Below are positions 46,580 through 61,063 of a DNA stretch of 64,000 nucleotides, piece after piece. The notes under the pieces were generated by a model. That model searched no databases and was not told where the DNA came from. It was given only the letters and a program-made list of their open reading frames with translations. The translations under genes and the position numbers were made by a program. Origin of the DNA: Candidatus Saccharimonadales bacterium (lineage in GTDB: Bacteria; Patescibacteriota; Saccharimonadia; Saccharimonadales; EFPC-124); contig DATIBO010000006.1 in assembly GCA_035457485.1 (NCBI GenBank), positions 306,659 through 370,658 of the forward strand, given 5' to 3'. The stretch's first letter is position 1. Each line of letters starts with the position of its first letter.

Positions 46580-48349
46580 ATGCAATGGGTTGCAGGGTTC
46601 TGGCCTCGACGAGACGCCATGAACAAACCTGTGGTTTTCCCAAAAAACTCACATGCCCACAATATGCTGTGGAATGTTGGGTACGAATGTACCGAGTTCC
46701 GTCGATTTAGCTCTGGTTCCACAACCGTCACGGTTGTAGGATCATGTCTGGCTACAGACGTCGAACTCAACGCCGCACTCCCAGCCGCCGATTCCGAGCG
46801 CTGGGAGATTTTTGCACAGTGGCCAGGTTCGTACATTGCCGTTGTGCAAAGAGCGCATGAAGCAGTAGTGATTACTGATCTTGCTGGGGCGAAACCGGTC
46901 TTCTGGGTAAAAACCGACTCTGGATGGTGGTGGTCGACAGCAGCGACACCTTTGGCGGCGTTGATGCGGTCAAAGGTTAACATTCGAGCACTTCTTACGC
47001 CTCTGATGGTGGCAGGAGTAGATGCGTGGGGCGGAGAAACGCCTTACGAGAAGGTGATGGTAGTTAAGCCGGGTTCGGTTCTTCGCCTGTCACATGACGG
47101 GCCGAAGGTCGAAACTTGGTATAAGCCAACGGTATTGTCGTTCGCCGAAGGGCAGCACAATTTCCGCGCCGCTCTCACTGATTCAGTCGGTCGGCGAGCA
47201 GCCCTAGGTGACATCTCTAGCGATTTGTCGGGAGGTATCGACTCAAGCCTTATTGCGCTGCTCGCAAGCCGCTTGACGGTTGTTCACGGAGCGACCTATG
47301 TTGATCCGTGGCAAAGAAACGATGACGCCGATTATGCTCGGCGCGTCGCAGGGTTCGGCGGAATCAGGCAAATTCTTGTCGAAGGCGACCAAACAACCAC
47401 TCACTACAGCGATCTCGATGAAGCGCCATTTACGGATACACCGTCGGCCGATGGGGTCTTGTTCGGCTACAACCGAGCAAAGCTTCAAGCTGTGAAGGCG
47501 GCGGGTTCTCGACACCATCTAACCGGAGCTGCGGGTGATTGCATGCTTTTGTCTCCCTACCCATGGGTGGCGGAGCTGTATAAGCACCAGCGGCTTCAGG
47601 CTCTCCGTTGGGCGCGCCAAGAAGCTCGGCGTCGTTTGACGTCAAGTCGGCGATTCATCCTCGCAACGCGTCGACTGGCTACAACATCATTTGCCAATGA
47701 AGCCGCAAGGCTGGCAGGCGGAGTTGAGGTGGCCGAAAAGACGGCATGGTCTTCAGTCTGCTGGCTTAAGTGGATGGAGTCCGCCATCTGGCTAACCGAA
47801 CAAGGTCGCTCGATGTTGTGTGGTCGTCTCGAGGAGATATCCTACGAGTTGGATCCGCCCGAGAATCCTGGCGCGAATCTCGATTGGCAAAGTCTTAGGG
47901 CTACGGCGATCGAGCGCACGACCGCGGTTGAGTTTGCGCGTTCCATTGGAATCACGCTCCACAATCCGTTTTTCGACACTCAGGTGATTGATGCTTGCCT
48001 GTCGATTCCGGGATATGAGCGTGCTCCCCTGGACACGTTTAAGCCGCTAGCAACGCTGGGCTTTATGGCAGAGTTGCCGGAGTTTTTGCGCCAGCGTCGC
48101 ACTAAGGGCGACTTTGCCGGCACGATGCTTCACGGTATTCTGTTTAACCAGCACTGGCTGAAGCGCATGATCGAAAGTTCGGCTCTGGTAGAAATGGGGT
48201 TGATCGACAGAGATCAGCTACGTCAAAGTGTTCAATCTGCGATTTACGGATTTGACACTCAGCTGCGCGGGATTCACCACCTGACTACGATCGAAATGTG
48301 GTTGAGGTCCCGCGATCTGCGTCCTACTGTTTGGTGGGAGATGCTGTGA
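46580..48349 (+). CDS. Lasso peptide cyclase (asparagine synthetase-like, C protein)
   Basis: 589 aa with the PP-loop ATP-pyrophosphatase motif DLSGGIDSS. AAGGAG RBS. Lasso cluster context. Confidence 0.85.
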   Translation: MQWVAGFWPRRDAMNKPVVFPKNSHAHNMLWNVGYECTEFRRFSSGSTTVTVVGSCLATDVELNAALPAADSERWEIFAQWPGSYIAVVQRAHEAVVITDLAGAKPVFWVKTDSGWWWSTAATPLAALMRSKVNIRALLTPLMVAGVDAWGGETPYEKVMVVKPGSVLRLSHDGPKVETWYKPTVLSFAEGQHNFRAALTDSVGRRAALGDISSDLSGGIDSSLIALLASRLTVVHGATYVDPWQRNDDADYARRVAGFGGIRQILVEGDQTTTHYSDLDEAPFTDTPSADGVLFGYNRAKLQAVKAAGSRHHLTGAAGDCMLLSPYPWVAELYKHQRLQALRWARQEARRRLTSSRRFILATRRLATTSFANEAARLAGGVEVAEKTAWSSVCWLKWMESAIWLTEQGRSMLCGRLEEISYELDPPENPGANLDWQSLRATAIERTTAVEFARSIGITLHNPFFDTQVIDACLSIPGYERAPLDTFKPLATLGFMAELPEFLRQRRTKGDFAGTMLHGILFNQHWLKRMIESSALVEMGLIDRDQLRQSVQSAIYGFDTQLRGIHHLTTIEMWLRSRDLRPTVWWEML

Positions 48350-48615
48350 AGCTTTCTCAGGATGCATACCCTGTGTTCGACAAGCTTACGGGATCGGCGT
48401 ACGTTCTCCTGCTCAGGACTGGCAAGTGGCGTTTTTTTAATCCGTCGGCCGGAAAGCTGTTAAAGCAACTAGCCGACGGTGTAGATCTGGAAACGGCTCT
48501 ACGAAACGTCGCCGCAGGATACAGGAGGCCGGTTGACGTCGATGTCTTAAGGATCGACATGGAGCCCGTACTTCGGGCAATGATCGACCTCGGAATCCTA
48601 GAGGAGAACGAGTGA
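48346..48615 (+). CDS. PqqD-like RiPP recognition element (lasso B1 protein)
   Basis: 89 aa from a GTG overlapping the cyclase TGA (GTGA). The track gives a longer in-frame ORF from 48298. Size and position fit B1. Confidence 0.7.
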   Translation: MKLSQDAYPVFDKLTGSAYVLLLRTGKWRFFNPSAGKLLKQLADGVDLETALRNVAAGYRRPVDVDVLRIDMEPVLRAMIDLGILEENE

Positions 48616-49028
48616 CAGTTAATATGCTGCCGCCAGATAGTTCTGGCAGTGGGCTGAGCCTTGGCTACAAAGTCCTGGGTTTTCTGAGCCTTCTTTTGGC
48701 GGTCACTTCACTTCGAGTTCTGTCCTTGGCGACGTTGGTTACCACCTTGATCAAGGTGAAGCCTGATCGTGCAGCCAGCTCAAGGCAGGCAGAGGACTAC
48801 ATCCGCGCTATTCAGTGGGCAGGTAATTTCTACTTCGGTAGAGTTGCCTGCCTAGAAAGAGCTGTCGGTGTCGCAATCCTCGCGGCCATGGTCCGCAGGC
48901 GGGTTACAAGTTGCATTGGTGCTCGCTTTCGACCCAACGAGTTCCATGCTTGGACTGAGGTCGACGGCACTCCGGTCATGGAGATCGAAAGTGCCGATTG
49001 GCCCTACCAAGCCGCGGTAAGGTTTTAG
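48612..49028 (+). CDS. Transglutaminase-like cysteine protease (lasso leader peptidase, B2 protein)
   Basis: 138 aa with Cys in GRVACLERA and His/Asp in EFHAWTEVDG. The GTG overlaps the B1 stop. Confidence 0.8.
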   Translation: MTVNMLPPDSSGSGLSLGYKVLGFLSLLLAVTSLRVLSLATLVTTLIKVKPDRAASSRQAEDYIRAIQWAGNFYFGRVACLERAVGVAILAAMVRRRVTSCIGARFRPNEFHAWTEVDGTPVMEIESADWPYQAAVRF

Positions 49029-51451: not shown

Positions 51452-52180
51452 TTACTGGACGTCGTAAGAAATACGAACCGTGCCAGCCTGAGTTTTTATT
51501 TTCCTGATTGTCTCACGCCCTATGTCTTTTAGTGCAGCAACATGCGTCCCGCCACATGGCACGCCAAAATCACCATATAACACAACTCGGCTCGGCTTAT
51601 CTTTTGGTAGATACTCCGGCACATGTCGGCAAAGTTTTGCCATTTCCTCTTTATTGACGAAACGTATTTCAGTGGTAATACCGCGGCTCAGGATTTCGGC
51701 AATCTTTTGCGATAACTTTTCCATTACATCTTCCTTGGCCTCGTTGCCCAAGTCACCTTGGTATTCAACGTACGCACCCTGTGGAAAGTGATAGCCTTTG
51801 CCCGGAACCCAGTCGTAGCCGAGTTCGTTTACCGCCATATCTAAAACGTGTCCGCCAGAGTGAACTCGAGTATTTAGTTCACGGCGATCTTTATCTACCG
51901 CGCACTCCACGTCTTCGCCTTGCATGAACGGATAGCCTTCAAAACGCCCGATGTGTAGTACGAGTCCCTCGGCAAAGCGCACCTCCTCAACGGTAAATGT
52001 GGAATCTGGGCTTGAAATTGTGCCGGTATCGTAGGGTTGCCCGCCGCCTTGCGGGTAAAAAACCGTTTGGTCTAGGTAGACGATTGTCTTTCCATCCTTT
52101 TCTTCAACCTTTTCAACGTATGCCGTACAAGCAAGTTGTTGCATATTTTCTAAATAAAGTAGTTTCGTGTGATTCATCAT
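51452..52180 (-). CDS. AlaX-type tRNA trans-editing protein (Ala/Thr-tRNA synthetase second additional domain)
   Basis: Zinc-binding motifs HSGGHVL (HxxxH) and CGGTHV (CxxxH). 242 aa. Confidence 0.8.
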   Translation of the reverse strand: MMNHTKLLYLENMQQLACTAYVEKVEEKDGKTIVYLDQTVFYPQGGGQPYDTGTISSPDSTFTVEEVRFAEGLVLHIGRFEGYPFMQGEDVECAVDKDRRELNTRVHSGGHVLDMAVNELGYDWVPGKGYHFPQGAYVEYQGDLGNEAKEDVMEKLSQKIAEILSRGITTEIRFVNKEEMAKLCRHVPEYLPKDKPSRVVLYGDFGVPCGGTHVAALKDIGRETIRKIKTQAGTVRISYDVQ

Positions 52181-52229: not shown

Positions 52230-53351
52230 CTAAAGATATCCTGCTGCGCCGTGATTAATTTTACTGTATACAGCATCGTAAATTTCGTTTGCTTCTTGGT
52301 TTGTTAGCGATCTTTCCAGATGCCTAAGCGTAATGCGTACTAGTACATTTTTTTGATCTGGCTTGCAGCCTAGTCGTTCACGGGCAATTTGCGGCAGATC
52401 CTTGTAGAGAGTTTCGTTTAATACTTCAACACTTTCAAGAATATTTACTTTGTCTCCTAGGGCTTGACGAATATCCTCGTTTATATCTTCTTCTACATGC
52501 TTCGCTGGAATGCTATATGACATGTCACGCGTAATCGCCGGTTGGTGTGATACTTCGGTATATTTTTCAAGGTCTTTCATTTGAACAGCGATCGCAGGGT
52601 TTGTAGAGCGAAGATAGCGAATGTCTGGGATATCTTTGAGCGTCATAACCAAGCGGTCGAGTCCAATACCCATAGCCCAGCCAGAATGTTTGGCCGGATC
52701 AAGCCCAGCATCATTGAGTATTTGATCGTTGATTAAGCCGCACTCTAAGATCTCGATATCTTGGTCGCCTAGCACGGCGTTTACTTCTACGCCCTGCTTT
52801 GTGTAGGGGTGTGGGCTGTCGATAATACGCAGTTTCCAGTCTGGGGCCGCGATTTCGGCGATTCTCCTGACCGTTTCAAGTAGATCTTCTTTAACAATTG
52901 TGGGTTTTCGGCTAATACGCCAAATGTCTAATTGATGGAGCACGCCCAAGTGCTTTTTGTCGGTAACATCACGGCGGTACGCAAGGCCAGGTAGTAAAAT
53001 CACAACATCTTGCCAGTCGTTTCGCGCGGCGAGCTGCTTTAGCAGTGCTGGCGCATGTGCAGTGGTGTGGGTGCGCAAAAGGTGTTCTTGGTCGACGTAG
53101 TGTGTGTAGGTGGATGAGCGGCTTATGTTGTCTTTAGGGACAAGCAGGGCATCGTAGTTGTCTGCGGCCAATACGATCGGATTATCGCGGTGGACAATTG
53201 TCTCGCTCATTGGATGTGCTGCTCGCACGCTATCTTCGATTTTTTGGTATAGCAAGGCGACCGCGTGTGGCTCGCCGGCTTGTGTTAGGTCTGGAATTGC
53301 TAAATAGCTTTTTAGCGCTTCTTTGCTGAGTGGTTTTATATACATTTTCAT
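52230..53351 (-). CDS. pheS: Phenylalanyl-tRNA synthetase alpha-type catalytic core fused to a C-terminal FDX-ACB-like domain (mitochondrial-style single-chain architecture)
   Basis: Class II motif 2 (YRRDVTDKKHLGVLHQLD), motif 3 (GWAMGIGLDRLVM), then about 115 aa with RDMSYSIP...VRITLRHLERSLTNQEANEIY resembling an FDX-ACB domain. No pheT is adjacent. Confidence 0.7.
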   Translation of the reverse strand: MKMYIKPLSKEALKSYLAIPDLTQAGEPHAVALLYQKIEDSVRAAHPMSETIVHRDNPIVLAADNYDALLVPKDNISRSSTYTHYVDQEHLLRTHTTAHAPALLKQLAARNDWQDVVILLPGLAYRRDVTDKKHLGVLHQLDIWRISRKPTIVKEDLLETVRRIAEIAAPDWKLRIIDSPHPYTKQGVEVNAVLGDQDIEILECGLINDQILNDAGLDPAKHSGWAMGIGLDRLVMTLKDIPDIRYLRSTNPAIAVQMKDLEKYTEVSHQPAITRDMSYSIPAKHVEEDINEDIRQALGDKVNILESVEVLNETLYKDLPQIARERLGCKPDQKNVLVRITLRHLERSLTNQEANEIYDAVYSKINHGAAGYL

Positions 53352-53720: not shown

Positions 53721-53782
53721 AACAAAAAAGCTCCAATAAAATAAATTATGGAACTTTTCGTATCTGTTGATAAATTTGGTGA
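53721..53782. repeat. Copy of the about 62-bp tRNA-Glu 3'-flank unit (hairpin + spacer + TGGTGA)
   Basis: Aligns with 59534-59595 with only a few substitutions or indels by hand alignment. Confidence 0.7.
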
Positions 53783-53816
53783 GCTCACTGGATAAAAAAT
53801 GGAACACTATCTACCC
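53778..53816 (+). repeat. R repeat copy 1 (about 39 bp)
   Basis: GGTGAGCTCACTGGATAAAAAATGGAACACTATCTACCC. Confidence 0.8.
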
Positions 53817-53862
53817 AAGTTTAATTTTGCTTTACCAAAAATCAATACTGCTCGGAATAGAC

Positions 53863-54426: not shown

Positions 54427-54561
54427 GGATTTATTATAGCAATAGCCAAAGCGGCTCAGGTGGCTCCCTACGGGAATCAAACTCAATTTTACAGAGGTGG
54501 TACAAACAAAAATGTCCCAGGCTTTATTTTCTGGAACATATTTATACCTGTTGTCTAAAAT

Positions 54562-54595
54562 GGTGAACTCGCTGGATAAAAGATGGAACACTATT
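54562..54595 (+). repeat. R repeat copy 2
   Basis: GGTGAACTCGCTGGATAAAAGATGGAACACTATT. Confidence 0.8.
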
Positions 54596-54698
54596 TTGAG
54601 CAGCACCCATATGCTCTACGTAAAGCTTATTAAGTTAGGCCTCGAGCTGAAGTAAGCCTCTTCCATTTTTGCTAGAATAATTAAAGATTGGAACCAAG

Positions 54699-55292: not shown

Positions 55293-55307
55293 TGTAATAA
55301 TTGCAAT

Positions 55308-55346
55308 GGCGACCTCACTGGATAAAAGATGGAACTCATTTATTCC
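55308..55346 (+). repeat. R repeat copy 3
   Basis: GGCGACCTCACTGGATAAAAGATGGAACTCATTTATTCC. Confidence 0.75.
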
Positions 55347-55470
55347 TGGTCTCTATTAGGCCGTTGGTCTTAAATAACACAGATGACTTGCCGAATGCCT
55401 ATTTTGCGTAGTGAGAAAGTGTTACGCCCACTGCATGGTGGACTATTGGCGATAATGAGACAAGCGCTTT

Positions 55471-57222
55471 TTAGCGCTTAGCCTCATATCGATCAAAACC
55501 ATACTCCAAAAAGCCTTCGCCGCTCGTAAGATTTGGTAGTCCTTGTTGCAAATCATGTACCTGAGCAGACGGAATATCCCCTGTAATCACATACATTTGG
55601 CCTTGTACTTTCGTATCTTTAGGGACGGCGCGAAGTTTTGCCAGAGCTGACAAGACGCCAGCAATCGATTCGCTCGGGATTTCAAGCTTAAAGTGACAAA
55701 TTGGCTCACAAATTACCGTGCCCGCTTGCTCCAGAGCCACACGTAAGACCACTGGAGTTAGCTTACGAAAATGAGCCGCCGTTGTTCTAGGCGTGTCGCT
55801 GATTGGCTTGGCTGTTCCGTCCCCTGTGTAGTAACTGCAGTCAGTCATGGTAACAATACAGTCGGTAACCTCTAGATCATACAACCCTTGCTGGAGGGTA
55901 TCTTTAATATATTGTGTCATGTGCGCTACGAAGTTACCGGTGTTTTTGTAAATATATAGCGGGATGTAATGGTCTACGCCAAGTCGGAATATAACCCCCG
56001 AACCTGGTATTCCTGGCTCAATGCTTAGTCCCACCGTGGCCGAAGTAGGATTGCGCTCTTCTTGCAAGAATTCGGCCGCGTGGCCACTGCCTATTGGCCG
56101 CTCGATACAAATTGGCTGTGTCCGCTCAAATTGTGCGGCAACGCCAAAGTCATGTGCAAGCGTGGCGGCAATTACCTCCTTTTGCACTTCGCCATAGAGC
56201 GAGACGTATAACTTTTGGGTGCTTTGCCGAAGGTTAATGAGCGGATCTTGCTCGGCAAGCTGCTTGAGCGCAGCATGCAGCTTGGGCTGTTGGCCGGTAT
56301 TTTTTGCGACTACTGCCGCTTCTAGCGTTGGGGCCACGAATGAAAAGCCACTATTGCGAACGTCGCCTATTGTGTCGCCAACTTGTGCGTTTTCTAAGCC
56401 CCACACTTTGCCAATCTCGCCGGCTCTTATACTCGAAGCCTGGGCGCGGCCAAAAACTTGCAACGCACTCACTTTGCCGTATGCCAGCTTTTCGCGCGCC
56501 TTGATTGCACCTGAAAAGAGGCGCAGGTAAGCAATTTTCTCACCCCGCGGCCCGCGCTCAATCTTGAAGATAGTACCGGAGGTAGTATTACTATAGGTTA
56601 GTGAGATCGGCAATATTAGAGGTAAGGCTCGCATCAAATCCTCGACTCCAGCGCCTGTGATTGCCGACCCAAAGAACACAGGGGTTGCGTTGGAAGGCTG
56701 GCATTGTGGCTTGAGTTTAAAGCTGGCATTGGGCTGGCCGATATTTTCTACCATGCCCATTGGTACAATCTTCAGCGCTAATTTGGTTGCAATTACATCG
56801 AGCAAATCAGAATATCGAGCACCCACACGGTCAATCTTATTCACAAAAATGACAGTCGGGATTTTTAATTTTTGCAAGGCTACCGTCAAAATGCGCGTCT
56901 GCGGTTGCACTCCCTCGACGGCCGAAATGACCAACACTACGCCGTCAAGCACACTTAAAACGCGCTCGACCTCGGCAATAAAGTCCGGGTGTCCGGGTGT
57001 GTCGATTAAGTTAACGCGAGTTTCGCCAATGTCAAACGAGGCCACGGCGGATTTTATCGTGATGCCGCGCTGACGCTCAAGTACGAGCGAATCCGTTTGA
57101 GTATTGCCCGCGTCTACACTGCCGACATTTTTAATAACCCCAGCAGCATAAAGCAGCCGCTCAGTTAAACTTGTTTTACCGGCGTCTACATGAGCCAGTA
57201 TTCCTAGATTTAGATATTTCAT
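55471..57222 (-). CDS. Tet(M)/Tet(O)-type ribosomal-protection GTPase homologue (EF-G-like)
   Basis: The N-terminus LNLGILAHVDAGKTSLTERLLYAAGVIKNVGSVDAGNTQTDSLVLERQRGITIKSAV...NLIDTPGHPDFIAEVERVLSVLDGVVLVISAVEGVQPQTR...NKIDR closely parallels the Tet(M) G-domain. 583 aa. Confidence 0.75.
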   Translation of the reverse strand: MKYLNLGILAHVDAGKTSLTERLLYAAGVIKNVGSVDAGNTQTDSLVLERQRGITIKSAVASFDIGETRVNLIDTPGHPDFIAEVERVLSVLDGVVLVISAVEGVQPQTRILTVALQKLKIPTVIFVNKIDRVGARYSDLLDVIATKLALKIVPMGMVENIGQPNASFKLKPQCQPSNATPVFFGSAITGAGVEDLMRALPLILPISLTYSNTTSGTIFKIERGPRGEKIAYLRLFSGAIKAREKLAYGKVSALQVFGRAQASSIRAGEIGKVWGLENAQVGDTIGDVRNSGFSFVAPTLEAAVVAKNTGQQPKLHAALKQLAEQDPLINLRQSTQKLYVSLYGEVQKEVIAATLAHDFGVAAQFERTQPICIERPIGSGHAAEFLQEERNPTSATVGLSIEPGIPGSGVIFRLGVDHYIPLYIYKNTGNFVAHMTQYIKDTLQQGLYDLEVTDCIVTMTDCSYYTGDGTAKPISDTPRTTAAHFRKLTPVVLRVALEQAGTVICEPICHFKLEIPSESIAGVLSALAKLRAVPKDTKVQGQMYVITGDIPSAQVHDLQQGLPNLTSGEGFLEYGFDRYEAKR

Positions 57223-57313
57223 TTAAAGAATGTGCTTTCGTGTTGAGTTTGTAGTTGTGAGTTAAGATGGTCTTTTGAAACATAGAATCTCCTGTTTGTT
57301 GATTATTTTGAAA

Positions 57314-57884
57314 CTAATTATTTGTATTAAACTTTATATCTGCCGCTAAGTCCGGCCGGTACTTTGCCATAAAGTCGCGTTCGTTCGGCATCCAAATATT
57401 GAGCCACAACCAGTCGTGATTATTGGCAATTGAAATATCGCGCGACATGCCACGTTTTGTGGCAACTTCGAGCGGGCAATCTACCCATATTTTATAGCCG
57501 TAAAACCTCAATATATCTGGGTGAAACATGCTTAATCCTTCGACAATGAGGTATTGGGATCTTGGCACAACACGCCACTCTCCAAGCCGGTCGTTTTTCC
57601 AGTCGTAGACTTGGTGACTAATTTTGCAAAGCTGGTTCAAGCACTTGTTTTTGCAAGCGCGGGCGATCGTAGCTATTCCAATCTTCTGTGCGATGTCGGC
57701 AACGGCTGATAATAAAGTCGTCAGCAGCGATTACTTCGGCATTGCCAAGTTTTTCTTTGAGCTTCGCTGCCAGCGTTGACTTACCCGAGCCGCCGTAGCC
57801 AGAAATAGCGATGATGATCGGACAATTTTTGTGTTGTTTTAGTTTTTGTATAGCAGTTACAATTTCTTGCATATTTTTCTCCAA
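57314..57884 (-). pseudogene. P-loop uridine-kinase-like NTP kinase split by a frameshift
   Basis: The N-terminal ORF (57618-57884, Walker A GYGGSGKST) and the C-terminal ORF (57314-57640) overlap in different frames around an A4 run (TTGCAAAATTAG). Confidence 0.6.
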
Positions 57885-58150: not shown

Positions 58151-58191
58151 GTCATCTGTAGAGTTTCCAAAGAAGATGAGAATGATGTCTT

Positions 58192-58230
58192 GGTGACCTC
58201 ACTGGATAAAAGATGGAACACTATTTACCC
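58192..58230 (+). repeat. R repeat copy 4
   Basis: GGTGACCTCACTGGATAAAAGATGGAACACTATTTACCC. Confidence 0.8.
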
Positions 58231-58453
58231 AGGTTTTCTATTAATCTTCGAAAGGCTAAAGCGGGTTGGAATCTATTTAAGAAAACAGGATGTTCTCTTA
58301 CGTAAAAGCTTTGTTGTTCATTAAATTAAAATGCCCAGTCTACACTGGGCACCATTTTTGCGTCGTGACAGACGTGTCGCCAACGTTGCGCATGTAGATC
58401 CGTGGTCATTGTCGTACAATGGATATCAGATTTACAAGGCAGGATGGAGACAT

Positions 58454-59533: not shown

Positions 59534-59589
59534 AACAAAAAAGCCCCACAAAATAAATTATGGAACTCTTTCGTATCTGTTGATAATTT

Positions 59590-59595
<6 letters not shown>
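59534..59595. repeat. tRNA-Glu 3'-flank unit (master copy) incl. terminator-like hairpin
   Basis: AACAAAAAAGCCCCACAAAATAAATTATGGAACTCTTTCGTATCTGTTGATAATTTTGGTGA, duplicated at 53721-53782. Confidence 0.7.
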
Positions 59596-59664
<69 letters not shown>

Positions 59665-59822: not shown

Positions 59823-60854
59823 TTACTTGGCCGGCGCCTTCGGGTCGGGGATGGTGATCCCCAGCCCGGCTCCCCCGAGGGAGAGCAGGCCGTCCGGCAG
59901 GGCGTTCAGCGCGTCGATCTGTGCGCAGCTCGGGCACGTGTTGTACCCGCGCTGGCGCGCCTCGTTCGCGTCGGCGTCCAGCACGGCCTTGGCCTTGGCC
60001 GCCTGCGCGGCGTTGGCGTCGGCCCAGGCGGCCAGCGTCTTGTCGATGCTCGTCTGAACCTTGTCGCTGATGACCAGTTCGACGCTGTTGAACACGACCT
60101 TGATCTCGCCGACCCAGCCGCCGAGCTTGGCCAGCTCTTCCTCGAGCCGCTTCTGCACGGCCGTCTGGATCTTCTCCCGGTTCGACGTCGCCTCAGGCGT
60201 CATCGCATCCGGGTTGATCACCTCCACGGGAGTCTGACCAGGCTTGACCTCGGTGGTGGTCTGCGGCTTGACCAGCTTGCACTTCGGGTTGAGCGCAGTG
60301 CAGTCGTACTTGACGATCTCGTCGCGGATGGCCGCGTCCGAGGCCTTGATCAGCACCGCGTCCAGGAAGGCGCGCCACCCCTTGAGCTCGTCGTACGAGT
60401 CGGACGGGAAGTAGAACTCCCCGTCGGCGCCCCGGTACTTGCGCGAGCCGTAGCTCGCGTCGAACTCCTTCAGCTTCTCGGCGTCACCCGTGATCGTGAT
60501 CAGCATCTGCCCCTTGATGCCGACGTCGATGCCGTCGCGCGTGGGGAAGGCGTTGTAGTTCACGCCGGGCTCGTCGGTCTTGTATGCGCCGACGAAGTCG
60601 ATGGGCTGCGGGGAACTGGGGTAGTACCGGACCTTCGACCACCAGCCGGTCCACTTGATGTTGGAGCCGGATCCGATGGTCATGAAGGGCTTACGGTCGT
60701 CGAACGGGCCGCCGTTGCGGACGACCGCGATCTGGCCGCTCTCGGTACTGGTGTAGCTGTCGAGAACGCCGACGAAGCCGACGCTACCGATCAGCGCGAG
60801 GAGGACGAAGAAGCCCTTCGTGGGCCCCGATCGCTCTCTCAGCCAGTCGATCAT
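59823..60854 (-). CDS. GC-rich membrane-anchored SPFH/band-7 (prohibitin-like) domain protein
   Basis: N-terminal TM, then GQIAVVRNGG...-type SPFH start, and a C-terminal Ala/Lys-rich coiled region. Start at the ATG after GGGAG. Strongly G/C-ending codons. Confidence 0.6.
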   Translation of the reverse strand: MIDWLRERSGPTKGFFVLLALIGSVGFVGVLDSYTSTESGQIAVVRNGGPFDDRKPFMTIGSGSNIKWTGWWSKVRYYPSSPQPIDFVGAYKTDEPGVNYNAFPTRDGIDVGIKGQMLITITGDAEKLKEFDASYGSRKYRGADGEFYFPSDSYDELKGWRAFLDAVLIKASDAAIRDEIVKYDCTALNPKCKLVKPQTTTEVKPGQTPVEVINPDAMTPEATSNREKIQTAVQKRLEEELAKLGGWVGEIKVVFNSVELVISDKVQTSIDKTLAAWADANAAQAAKAKAVLDADANEARQRGYNTCPSCAQIDALNALPDGLLSLGGAGLGITIPDPKAPAK

Positions 60855-61063
60855 GGCAAACTCCCAGTTGTGCATGAGCAATACGGTTGCTCACCCGGAG
60901 AAGATTAAAATCCCCTCATAAAAAAGCCAGAAAGCCCTGGCCGTCTTAAGAAGAGATTTTTGTCTTCAGCGATCTAAAATATACAACTTTTTTTACTAAA
61001 CGTCAACTATTTTGTATATTGTGCACTTCTCCTTTTAAGCTCGATCTGTTATCCTATAGGTCG

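Follow-up and report, generated by a model that had tools for sequence, protein, structure and literature searches.

A shortened Otr(A)-branch translational GTPase with an overlapping leader open reading frame in a Candidatus Saccharimonadales genome

Does an epibiont of the Candidatus Saccharimonadales carry a gene for a protein that protects its ribosomes from tetracycline-class compounds? The question is raised by an open reading frame (ORF) in a 64,000-nucleotide stretch of DNA (the window; GenBank assembly GCA_035457485.1, contig DATIBO010000006.1, positions 306,659 to 370,658), whose product an earlier note, made from the letters alone, had described as a Tet(M)/Tet(O)-type ribosomal-protection GTPase. 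As judged from its tree position and profile scores, the GTPase belongs to the lineage of the ribosomal-protection proteins (RPPs), in the Otr(A)/actinobacterial branch and not in that of Tet(M)/Tet(O). The gene is preceded and overlapped by a conserved short leader ORF with a Shine-Dalgarno (SD)-like motif of its own.

Family placement and architecture

55471–57222, minus strand: coding sequence of the Otr(A)-branch ribosomal-protection-like GTPase (ATG start; 583 amino acids (aa); G domain, G' remnant and domains II–V)
56608–57222, minus strand: G domain, aa 1–205, by alignment with Tet(M), Tet(O), Otr(A)-like and EF-G sequences

The ORF is real, reading from an ATG on the minus strand into 583 aa as had been claimed, and its product is 100% identical to an NCBI entry named 'translation factor GTPase family protein [Candidatus Saccharimonadales bacterium]' on an 889-kb contig; the annotation as Candidatus Saccharimonadales fits the small-genome epibiont that had been supposed. 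The protein contains the Pfam domains GTP_EFTU (E = 1e-54), EF-G D2, EFG_III, EFG_IV and EFG_C, and the GTPase motifs are all intact in the alignment (G1 AHVDAGKT, G2 RGITI, G3 DTPGH, G4 NKID and G5 GSA). The Tet(M) consensus string quoted in the earlier note is correct except for one gap, which spans seven residues between 'SF' and 'N.IDTPGH' instead of six. Over aa 1–159 the identity is 72.3% with the Otr(A)-like protein of Streptomyces chartreusis, 58.5% with Tet(M) and 46.5% with EF-G of Escherichia coli. The AlphaFold2 (AF2) model of the GTPase (pLDDT 81.9, pTM 0.72) has the five-domain EF-G/Tet(M) fold according to Foldseek, which cannot tell EF-G from Tet(M) for this model (E values of 1e-45 to 1e-49 for both). 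The EF-G-like five-domain architecture with intact G1–G5 that characterizes RPPs was found by Pfam, alignment and AF2/Foldseek alike.

The gene is under strong purifying selection, the dN/dS ratio against six orthologues being 0.07–0.10 with dS close to saturation. From the intact motifs, the low dN/dS and the confident AF2 fold, the protein is clearly predicted to be a functional translational GTPase, and no second translational GTPase is encoded in the 64-kb window. The GC content of the gene (49.8%) is slightly higher than the window mean (45.5%), which is unremarkable, while a promoter/terminator scan was uninformative, with counts at shuffle level.

The reference RPPs were taken from annotated plasmids (Tet(M), Tet(O), Tet(S), Tet(W), Tet(36), TetB(P) and one Otr(A)-like protein) and the non-RPP references EF-G, LepA and BipA from E. 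coli K-12; the tree was built by neighbour joining (NJ) only, from 588 trimmed columns with 100 bootstraps, RF3 being excluded by the length filter. The GTPase and all reference RPPs cluster together with EF-G outside (100% bootstrap), the GTPase pairs with the Otr(A)-like protein of S. chartreusis (100%), and the clade of Tet(M), Tet(O), Tet(S), Tet(W), Tet(36) and TetB(P) (85% support) leaves it out. It is thus placed within the RPP radiation and apart from EF-G, LepA and BipA, its separation from RF3 being given by hidden Markov model scores. The best NCBIfam score is that of the Otr(A) model NF000120 (603.1 bits, under its cut-off of 900), and the general RPP model NF012153 (tet_protect) gives 570.6 bits (cut-off 775). 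The long Otr(A)-like relatives also remain under these cut-offs, with 658–696 bits for tet_protect and 664–738 bits for Otr(A). The EF-G models reach at most 241 bits (TIGR00484, 228 against a cut-off of 659) and RF3 173 bits, and in a PDB search Tet(M)/Tet(O) score about 293 bits compared with about 187–188 for EF-G.

The proposal of a ribosomal-protection lineage as opposed to a housekeeping EF-G or RF3 is therefore borne out by the tree (100%) and the scores (603 and 571 bits against no more than 241 and 173). The Tet(M)/Tet(O)-type label has to be withdrawn, as the whole protein is 33–36% identical to Tet(M), Tet(O) and Tet(W), scores 360 bits with the TetM/W/O/S model NF033148 (cut-off 1100) and stands on the separate Otr(A) branch. 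Its closest full-length relatives among the matches listed are 49–59% identical, 640–680 aa long and 63–73% in GC, and come from Thermoleophilia, Actinoplanes, Streptomyces, other Actinomycetota and soil metagenomes. The actinobacterial, Otr(A)-type donors suggested earlier agree with these relatives, mostly Actinomycetota among the matches listed. RPP-like genes in genomes of the candidate phyla radiation (CPR) have been reported at survey level (PMC8651080), so that mere presence is not new, and Actinobacteria are already in the literature as the source of the otr(A) group (PMC7725328).

Together with the window protein, the short forms make up a clade of 44 proteins (567–611 aa, 66–79% identical to the window GTPase) that is monophyletic at 100% in the NJ tree. 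The members with a named source are labelled Saccharimonadales, apart from one labelled Bacillota, and the same 582–593-aa architecture is found in at least 40 distinct proteins. Scans of genome and metagenome contigs with generic motifs (AHVDAGKT, NLIDTPGH and GHPDFIAE) returned almost only long forms among the matches listed.

56680–56775, minus strand: remnant of the G' subdomain, aa 150–181, by alignment; the HMMER match breaks into two stretches here
55768–55842, minus strand: loop III of domain IV, aa 461–485, 'DCSYYTGDGTAKPISDTPRTTAAHF', by alignment

In EF-G, the G' subdomain contacts L7/L12. The aligned G' region comprises 32 aa in the GTPase, 66 in Tet(M), 67–75 in Otr(A)-like proteins and 100 in EF-G, and the normal-sized G' of RPPs (66–75 aa) is thus missing. 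The GTPase ends at a position equivalent to residue 614 of Tet(M), leaving the last approximately 25 residues of Tet(M), the C-terminal extension, without a counterpart. This extension ('RPNSRIDKVRYMF' or 'NPLxRKEYL') is present in 7 of the 7 reference RPPs and missing in the GTPase. No remnant of it lies downstream of the stop codon in any frame, which rules out an extension hidden by a frameshift. A helix in the C-terminal extension of Tet(M) is described as important for function in one report (PMC4750697). Since the extension is absent from the GTPase and present in all RPPs compared, tetracycline resistance cannot be assumed. The shortness relative to Tet(M)/Tet(O) that the earlier note remarked on is accounted for by the G' and C-terminal losses, partly offset by insertions of about 11 aa in loop III and 7 aa in a neighbouring loop.

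Loop III contains the flanks YY and TP..TT, which align to 'YYSPVST' of Tet(M), and an insertion of about 11 aa (YYTGDGTAKPISDTPRTT) that is common to the long Otr(A)-like proteins and nearly invariant in the short clade. Twelve positions are invariant in a 9-sequence alignment of the clade (Y464, Y465, D468, G469, K472, P473, I474, S475, T477, P478, T480 and T481). With respect to the Tet(M) loop residues at the tetracycline site (Y506-Y507...S508-P509-V510), the YY and TP..TT flanks are kept, and the approximately 11-aa insertion separates them. In a study of Tet(M) mutants, loop III is called 'functionally most important' (PMC4750697). On these alignments the short clade is a pared-down form of the family, which has lost most of G' and the whole C-terminal extension and has kept the core, domains II–V and the long loop III.

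Three further proteins form a sister group (P0049, P0117 and P0058, the last encoded at L182:6001–7770). They are 588–593 aa long and also lack G' and the C-terminal extension, and where the others have the long loop III of Otr(A), theirs is short and resembles that of Tet(M) ('GYESPGSTAGDF'). P0117 is named Saccharibacteria, and locus L182 carries a leader ORF of type A.

Compared with known proteins, the GTPase is most like Otr(A) of Streptomyces rimosus and the actinomycete Otr(A)-like GTPases (NF000120), sharing 47–57% identity, the same long loop III and the approximately 7-aa insertion in the neighbouring loop, as well as the 100%-supported clade with the S. chartreusis protein. It differs from them in lacking about 35–43 residues of G' and the whole C-terminal extension (...NPLxRKEYL...), in scoring below 900 bits, and in being encoded by a reduced CPR genome of about 45% GC rather than by a high-GC actinomycete. 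With Tet(M), Tet(O), Tet(W) and Tet(S) (NF033148; PDB 3J9Y and 4V6V) it has in common the five-domain fold, identical G1–G5 motifs, a G-domain identity of 58% and the 'YY' and '(S/T)P..(S/T)T' flanks of loop III, whereas these proteins have a loop III shorter by 11–12 residues, a full G', the C-terminal helix and a separate branch of the tree. EF-G (TIGR00484) and EF-G2 have the same fold and GTPase motifs, and presumably the same ribosomal binding site, but EF-G is only 29% identical (228 against 659 bits), stands on a separate branch, has a G' of 100 aa against 32 and has unlike domain IV loops, its 'HxVDS' loop being absent from the GTPase.

The overlapping leader ORF

57176–57283, minus strand: leader upstream ORF (uORF) of 35 codons (MFQKTILTHNYKLNTKAHSLNEISKSRNTGSCRRR), in another frame than the main ORF and reading across the main start
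57289–57293, minus strand: SD-like motif AGGAG, ending 5 nt before the leader ATG

The leader ATG (57283) is located 61 nt ahead of the main ATG (57222), and the leader stop codon TAA (57178–57176) spans two codons of the P-loop, taking its T from GGT (Gly15) and its AA from the Lys16 codon. The leader ORF thereby ends 47 nt inside the main gene. The main ATG itself has no SD-like motif. A frameshift fusion of the leader and main ORFs was considered and ruled out, as the first residues encoded from the main ATG line up one by one with those at the start of Tet(M) and Otr(A)-like proteins.

The arrangement recurs across the short forms, for which the leader and context counts rest on 13 loci. 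An equivalent uORF of 35–36 codons starts at −61 or −64 in 12 of the 13, an SD-like motif precedes it in all 12 of these, and in 11 of the 12 there is none ahead of the main ATG. In the only short-form locus without the uORF (L181), the main gene has an SD of its own, and its start overlaps the end of the kinase gene upstream (ATGA). Among the GC-rich long forms, 78 of 82 Otr(A)-like loci contain an equivalent uORF (consensus MRQAFMSIEKAFGTYSEG...), and the same uORF is found before the Otr(A)-like gene of S. chartreusis; in both the window and the Otr(A)-like loci it begins MR... and ends at the P-loop GGT-AAx, while the main start is without an SD in the Saccharimonadales versions. The long-form leaders (L102–L180, L017–L028 and L005) comprise about 36–37 codons, overlap the main start and are conserved at the nucleotide level.

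The codon that supplies the leader stop is itself unusual. Of 90 GC-rich relatives, 76 use GGT for the P-loop Gly, a count from related genes that is not an independent-sample statistic, whereas GGT makes up only 12.6% of the Gly codons of these genes, whose mean GC content at third codon positions (GC3) is 0.86. This bias suggests that the uORF stop is under selection.

RNAalifold predicts for the long-form leaders that uORF codons 4–7 pair with the main SD and start, and that the uORF start pairs with GGCGCAU of the Ala-His codons. In this helix the share of paired cells is 96%, whereas slid controls do not exceed 60%, and UA/CG compensation occurs at two pairs. For the type-A leaders of Saccharimonadales, a comparable helix reaches about −22 kcal/mol, its z being near −4.

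None of the NCBIfam models matched the leader peptides, and no stalling motif was identified in the leader. A targeted full-text literature search found no description of the overlapping uORF, which is weak evidence of newness. Leader-peptide genes are known for tet(M) and tet(W), which tetracycline induces (PMC3350403), and the 'tetM' gene SCO0783 of Streptomyces coelicolor is induced through the WblC/WhiB7 translation-stress regulon (PMC7157823). The leaders described here share with the attenuation systems of ermC, cat/cmlA, tet(M)/tet(W) (tetLP) and the ABC-F genes a short 5' ORF preceded by an SD and a controlled gene that acts on the ribosome, and also, in the long-form and type-A relatives, an initiation region predicted to pair with early leader codons. 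Leader ORFs of the tet(M) type lie upstream of the start codon and do not overlap it, whereas the leader ORF of the window runs on past the main start and terminates at the P-loop codon, 47 nt into the gene. SCO0783 is presumably a homologue of the Otr(A)-like type.

Proposed function and rival explanations

The reading favoured here, with a probability of about 0.6, is that the gene encodes a functional, streamlined GTPase of the RPP lineage in the Otr(A) branch, which acts on ribosomes with a blocked A site and is expressed in dependence on the leader ORF. The GTP form of the protein would bind the factor-binding site of such a ribosome, and the tip of domain IV would enter the 30S decoding centre and displace the bound inhibitor, be it of the tetracycline class or another A-site binder; GTP hydrolysis would then free the factor, and aminoacyl-tRNA could enter. 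Expression would depend on the conserved leader ORF overlapping the main start, the main ATG having no ribosome-binding site of its own. Early leader codons are predicted to pair with the main start region in those relatives that allow an assessment of RNA structure, and stalling of a ribosome near the beginning of the leader would therefore make the main start accessible, in an erm/cat-style translation attenuation. The data establish the family to which this GTPase belongs, its architecture with the two losses, the selection on it, the presence of a conserved leader ORF and the genomic surroundings. From these we infer displacement of a drug, drug specificity and inducibility, and protection against tetracycline in particular is plausible. 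The best-supported reading of its history is an old acquisition, because the clade has diversified to 66–79% identity, followed by streamlining in the short clade.

Several findings weigh against this reading. On the side of the protein, G' is largely deleted, and there is no C-terminal extension such as Tet(M), Tet(O), Tet(S), Tet(W), Tet(36), TetB(P) and the Otr(A)-like protein all possess; both curated RPP cut-offs (NF012153 and NF000120) are missed. On the side of the leader, that of the window, which is of type B, pairs only weakly between the uORF start and the main start (−11 kcal/mol, z −1.7), and RNAalifold yields no structure common to both types of Saccharimonadales leaders. The uORF is also without codon-position periodicity in short and long forms, with pN/pS of about 0.75 in two of the three frames. 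Given this lack of frame preference, selection on the leader peptide is not demonstrated, and the conservation could be at the RNA level.

A wider version of the favoured reading is tentative, and we regard it as rather doubtful: the whole Otr(A)-like branch, from the high-GC Actinomycetota of soil down to the shortened Saccharimonadales form, may share one undescribed leader device, with about 36 codons beginning some 61 nt upstream, a TAA within the P-loop GGT-AAR and early codons pairing with the ribosome-binding site, which would sense ribosomes blocked at or just after initiation, the block that tetracycline and other A-site inhibitors produce, and the Saccharimonadales proteins may be the smallest natural RPPs, in which G' and the C-terminal helix are dispensable.

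Of the alternatives, the one that survives best, as a serious though less probable explanation, is that this RPP descendant is now a non-antibiotic stress or rescue factor, for example one that clears or recycles stalled or hibernating ribosomes, and that without G' and the C-terminal helix it serves another purpose in the reduced translation machinery of Saccharimonadales. It would account for losses that are fixed across a clade of at least 44 members, for scores under the curated cut-offs and for strong purifying selection in organisms without known tetracycline exposure. The surroundings also give the gene the look of a resident rather than of fresh cargo, as a kinase gene is located upstream in 7 of the 13 loci (the window, L099, L100, L101, L181, L183 and L184) and tRNA-Glu or PheRS genes are near in several. 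However, the protein is nested in the RPP radiation and does not derive from EF-G, EF-G2, RF3, LepA or BipA, and conservation is highest at the tip of domain IV, the part that touches the drug site in Tet(M). Overlapping leader ORFs are, moreover, typical of drug-inducible resistance genes, and the gene often adjoins resistance-like genes and conjugative modules.

That the gene is truncated and decaying, its shortness reflecting pseudogenization in a reduced genome, is very improbable. It is indeed 55–80 aa shorter than its relatives and lies beside a genuinely frameshifted kinase gene, but the 582–593-aa architecture recurs in at least 40 proteins, dN/dS is about 0.08, the catalytic motifs are all intact, the deletions are clean, in frame and at domain boundaries, and the model folds confidently. 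A recently acquired, mobile clinical determinant of the Tet(M)/Tet(O) type, which the 58% identity of the G domain to Tet(M) and Tet(O) and the conjugation genes beside some relatives might suggest, is the least credible of all, given an overall identity of 33–36%, 360 bits against 1100, the Otr(A) branch at 100%, clade members only 66–79% identical (pointing to an old acquisition) and a window locus at which no integrase or transposase was found.

Genomic context and implications

57314–57884, minus strand: P-loop kinase of the uridine-kinase/PRK family, a frameshifted pseudogene directly upstream of the GTPase gene and co-oriented with it
59590–59664, minus strand: tRNA-Glu with anticodon TTC (ARAGORN, Rfam), the only one in the window
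55307–55350, plus strand: R repeat just downstream of the GTPase stop codon
58190–58272, plus strand: R repeat upstream of the kinase gene
54560–54642, plus strand: R repeat between the Ser_hydrolase and DUF998 genes
53721–53858, plus strand: R repeat (53776–53858) with a 67-nt stretch, at the far boundary of the approximately 5.8-kb accessory block

The adjacent kinase gene is frameshifted as stated in the earlier note: the ORFs 57618–57884 and 57314–57640 jointly match intact orthologues of 187–190 aa, the frame changing from −3 to −1, and the split is present in an independent assembly as well. The upstream kinase genes of relatives are located at L099:1587–2150, L100:9341–9913, L181:1718–2287, L183:5306–5905 and L184:5348–5911. 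Together with the GTPase gene, the kinase pseudogene is part of an accessory block of about 5.8 kb that extends from a PheS-like gene to the tRNA-Glu gene and also contains the Ser_hydrolase, DUF998 and NUDIX genes and a DUF6270 fragment. No integrase or transposase gene is present at the window locus.

The supposed 'tRNA-Glu array' consists of a single tRNA-Glu (ARAGORN, Rfam) and four local repeats which are not tRNA genes; the GTPase does lie between two R repeats, those at 55307–55350 and 58190–58272, which bracket it together with the kinase. The repeat core occurs four times in the window (at 53784, 54568, 55314 and 58198), against none expected by chance, and only in the accessory block. 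The repeats resemble the T-arm, acceptor and CCA end of tRNA-Glu, have the orientation of the tRNA and delimit units of one or two genes. The segment 53721–53787 shares 76% identity over 67 nt with the 3' end and 3' flank of the tRNA-Glu gene (59534–59600), and one copy of the repeat also duplicates 56 nt of this flank. The repeats were rejected as tRNA pseudogenes, since no covariance model matched them (Infernal) even at E up to 5, and no similar repeats surround the gene in L097, L098 or any other relative's locus. Repeated insertion at the tRNA may have left them as decayed att scars, or they may mark cassette boundaries.

A tRNA-Glu gene lies within 3 kb of the GTPase gene in 3 of the 13 loci. 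Frequent neighbours in relatives are genes for APH, glyoxalase, RibD_C, VanY/M15-like and NUDIX proteins, and three of the relatives' loci adjoin conjugation genes (VirB4/TraG-like, TrwB-like, CHAP and TraC-like). These are L003:1–19460, L004:2452–11985 and L182:977–3673, the first of which also contains a serine recombinase and a relaxase-like protein. Such neighbourhoods suggest integrative conjugative elements with resistance-like cargo (APH, glyoxalase and VanY/M15-like) in the phylum of the Saccharimonadales.

Several other genes of the window were observed in passing. An SPFH/Band 7 gene (59823–60881, minus strand) adjoins the tRNA-Glu gene and has 65% GC and 93.5% GC3, whereas the GC content of the window as a whole is 45.5%; it looks foreign, and no donor can be named, the best homologue elsewhere being 35% identical. 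A GC-rich patch (50–56%) at 46580–49028 on the plus strand encodes an asparagine-synthase-like protein of 589 aa, a 105-aa ORF without a match and a transglutaminase-core protein of 138 aa, a set that presumably resembles those for lasso-peptide maturation. The PheS-like gene (52230–53351, minus strand) encodes a 373-aa protein with a PheS-type class II core and a C-terminal FDX-ACB anticodon-binding fold, which we take to be the architecture of monomeric mitochondrial PheRS rather than of bacterial PheS/PheT, and it adjoins a gene for an AlaX-like editing-domain protein (51452–52180, minus strand).

What sets this locus apart is mainly the minimal architecture of the GTPase together with the overlapping leader ORF found across the clade. 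If the short protein protects ribosomes, it would be a natural minimal RPP, showing that G' and the C-terminal helix can be lost and drawing attention to the role of the enlarged loop III at the decoding centre. The Otr(A)-like genes are a large set, most of them uncharacterized, which resistome surveys count as tetracycline resistance by homology alone, and the overlapping leader ORF offers for them a concrete regulatory element that can be put to the test. Caution is needed with such calls, as some pipelines label the present gene 'ribosomal protection tetracycline resistance protein' though the curated thresholds are missed. Saccharibacteria live on Actinomycetota, and the relationships of the GTPase point to old gene flow between the two. 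The gene has been retained for a long time although the genome is very small, which speaks for real selection on these epibionts by ribosome-targeting compounds or by translation stress.

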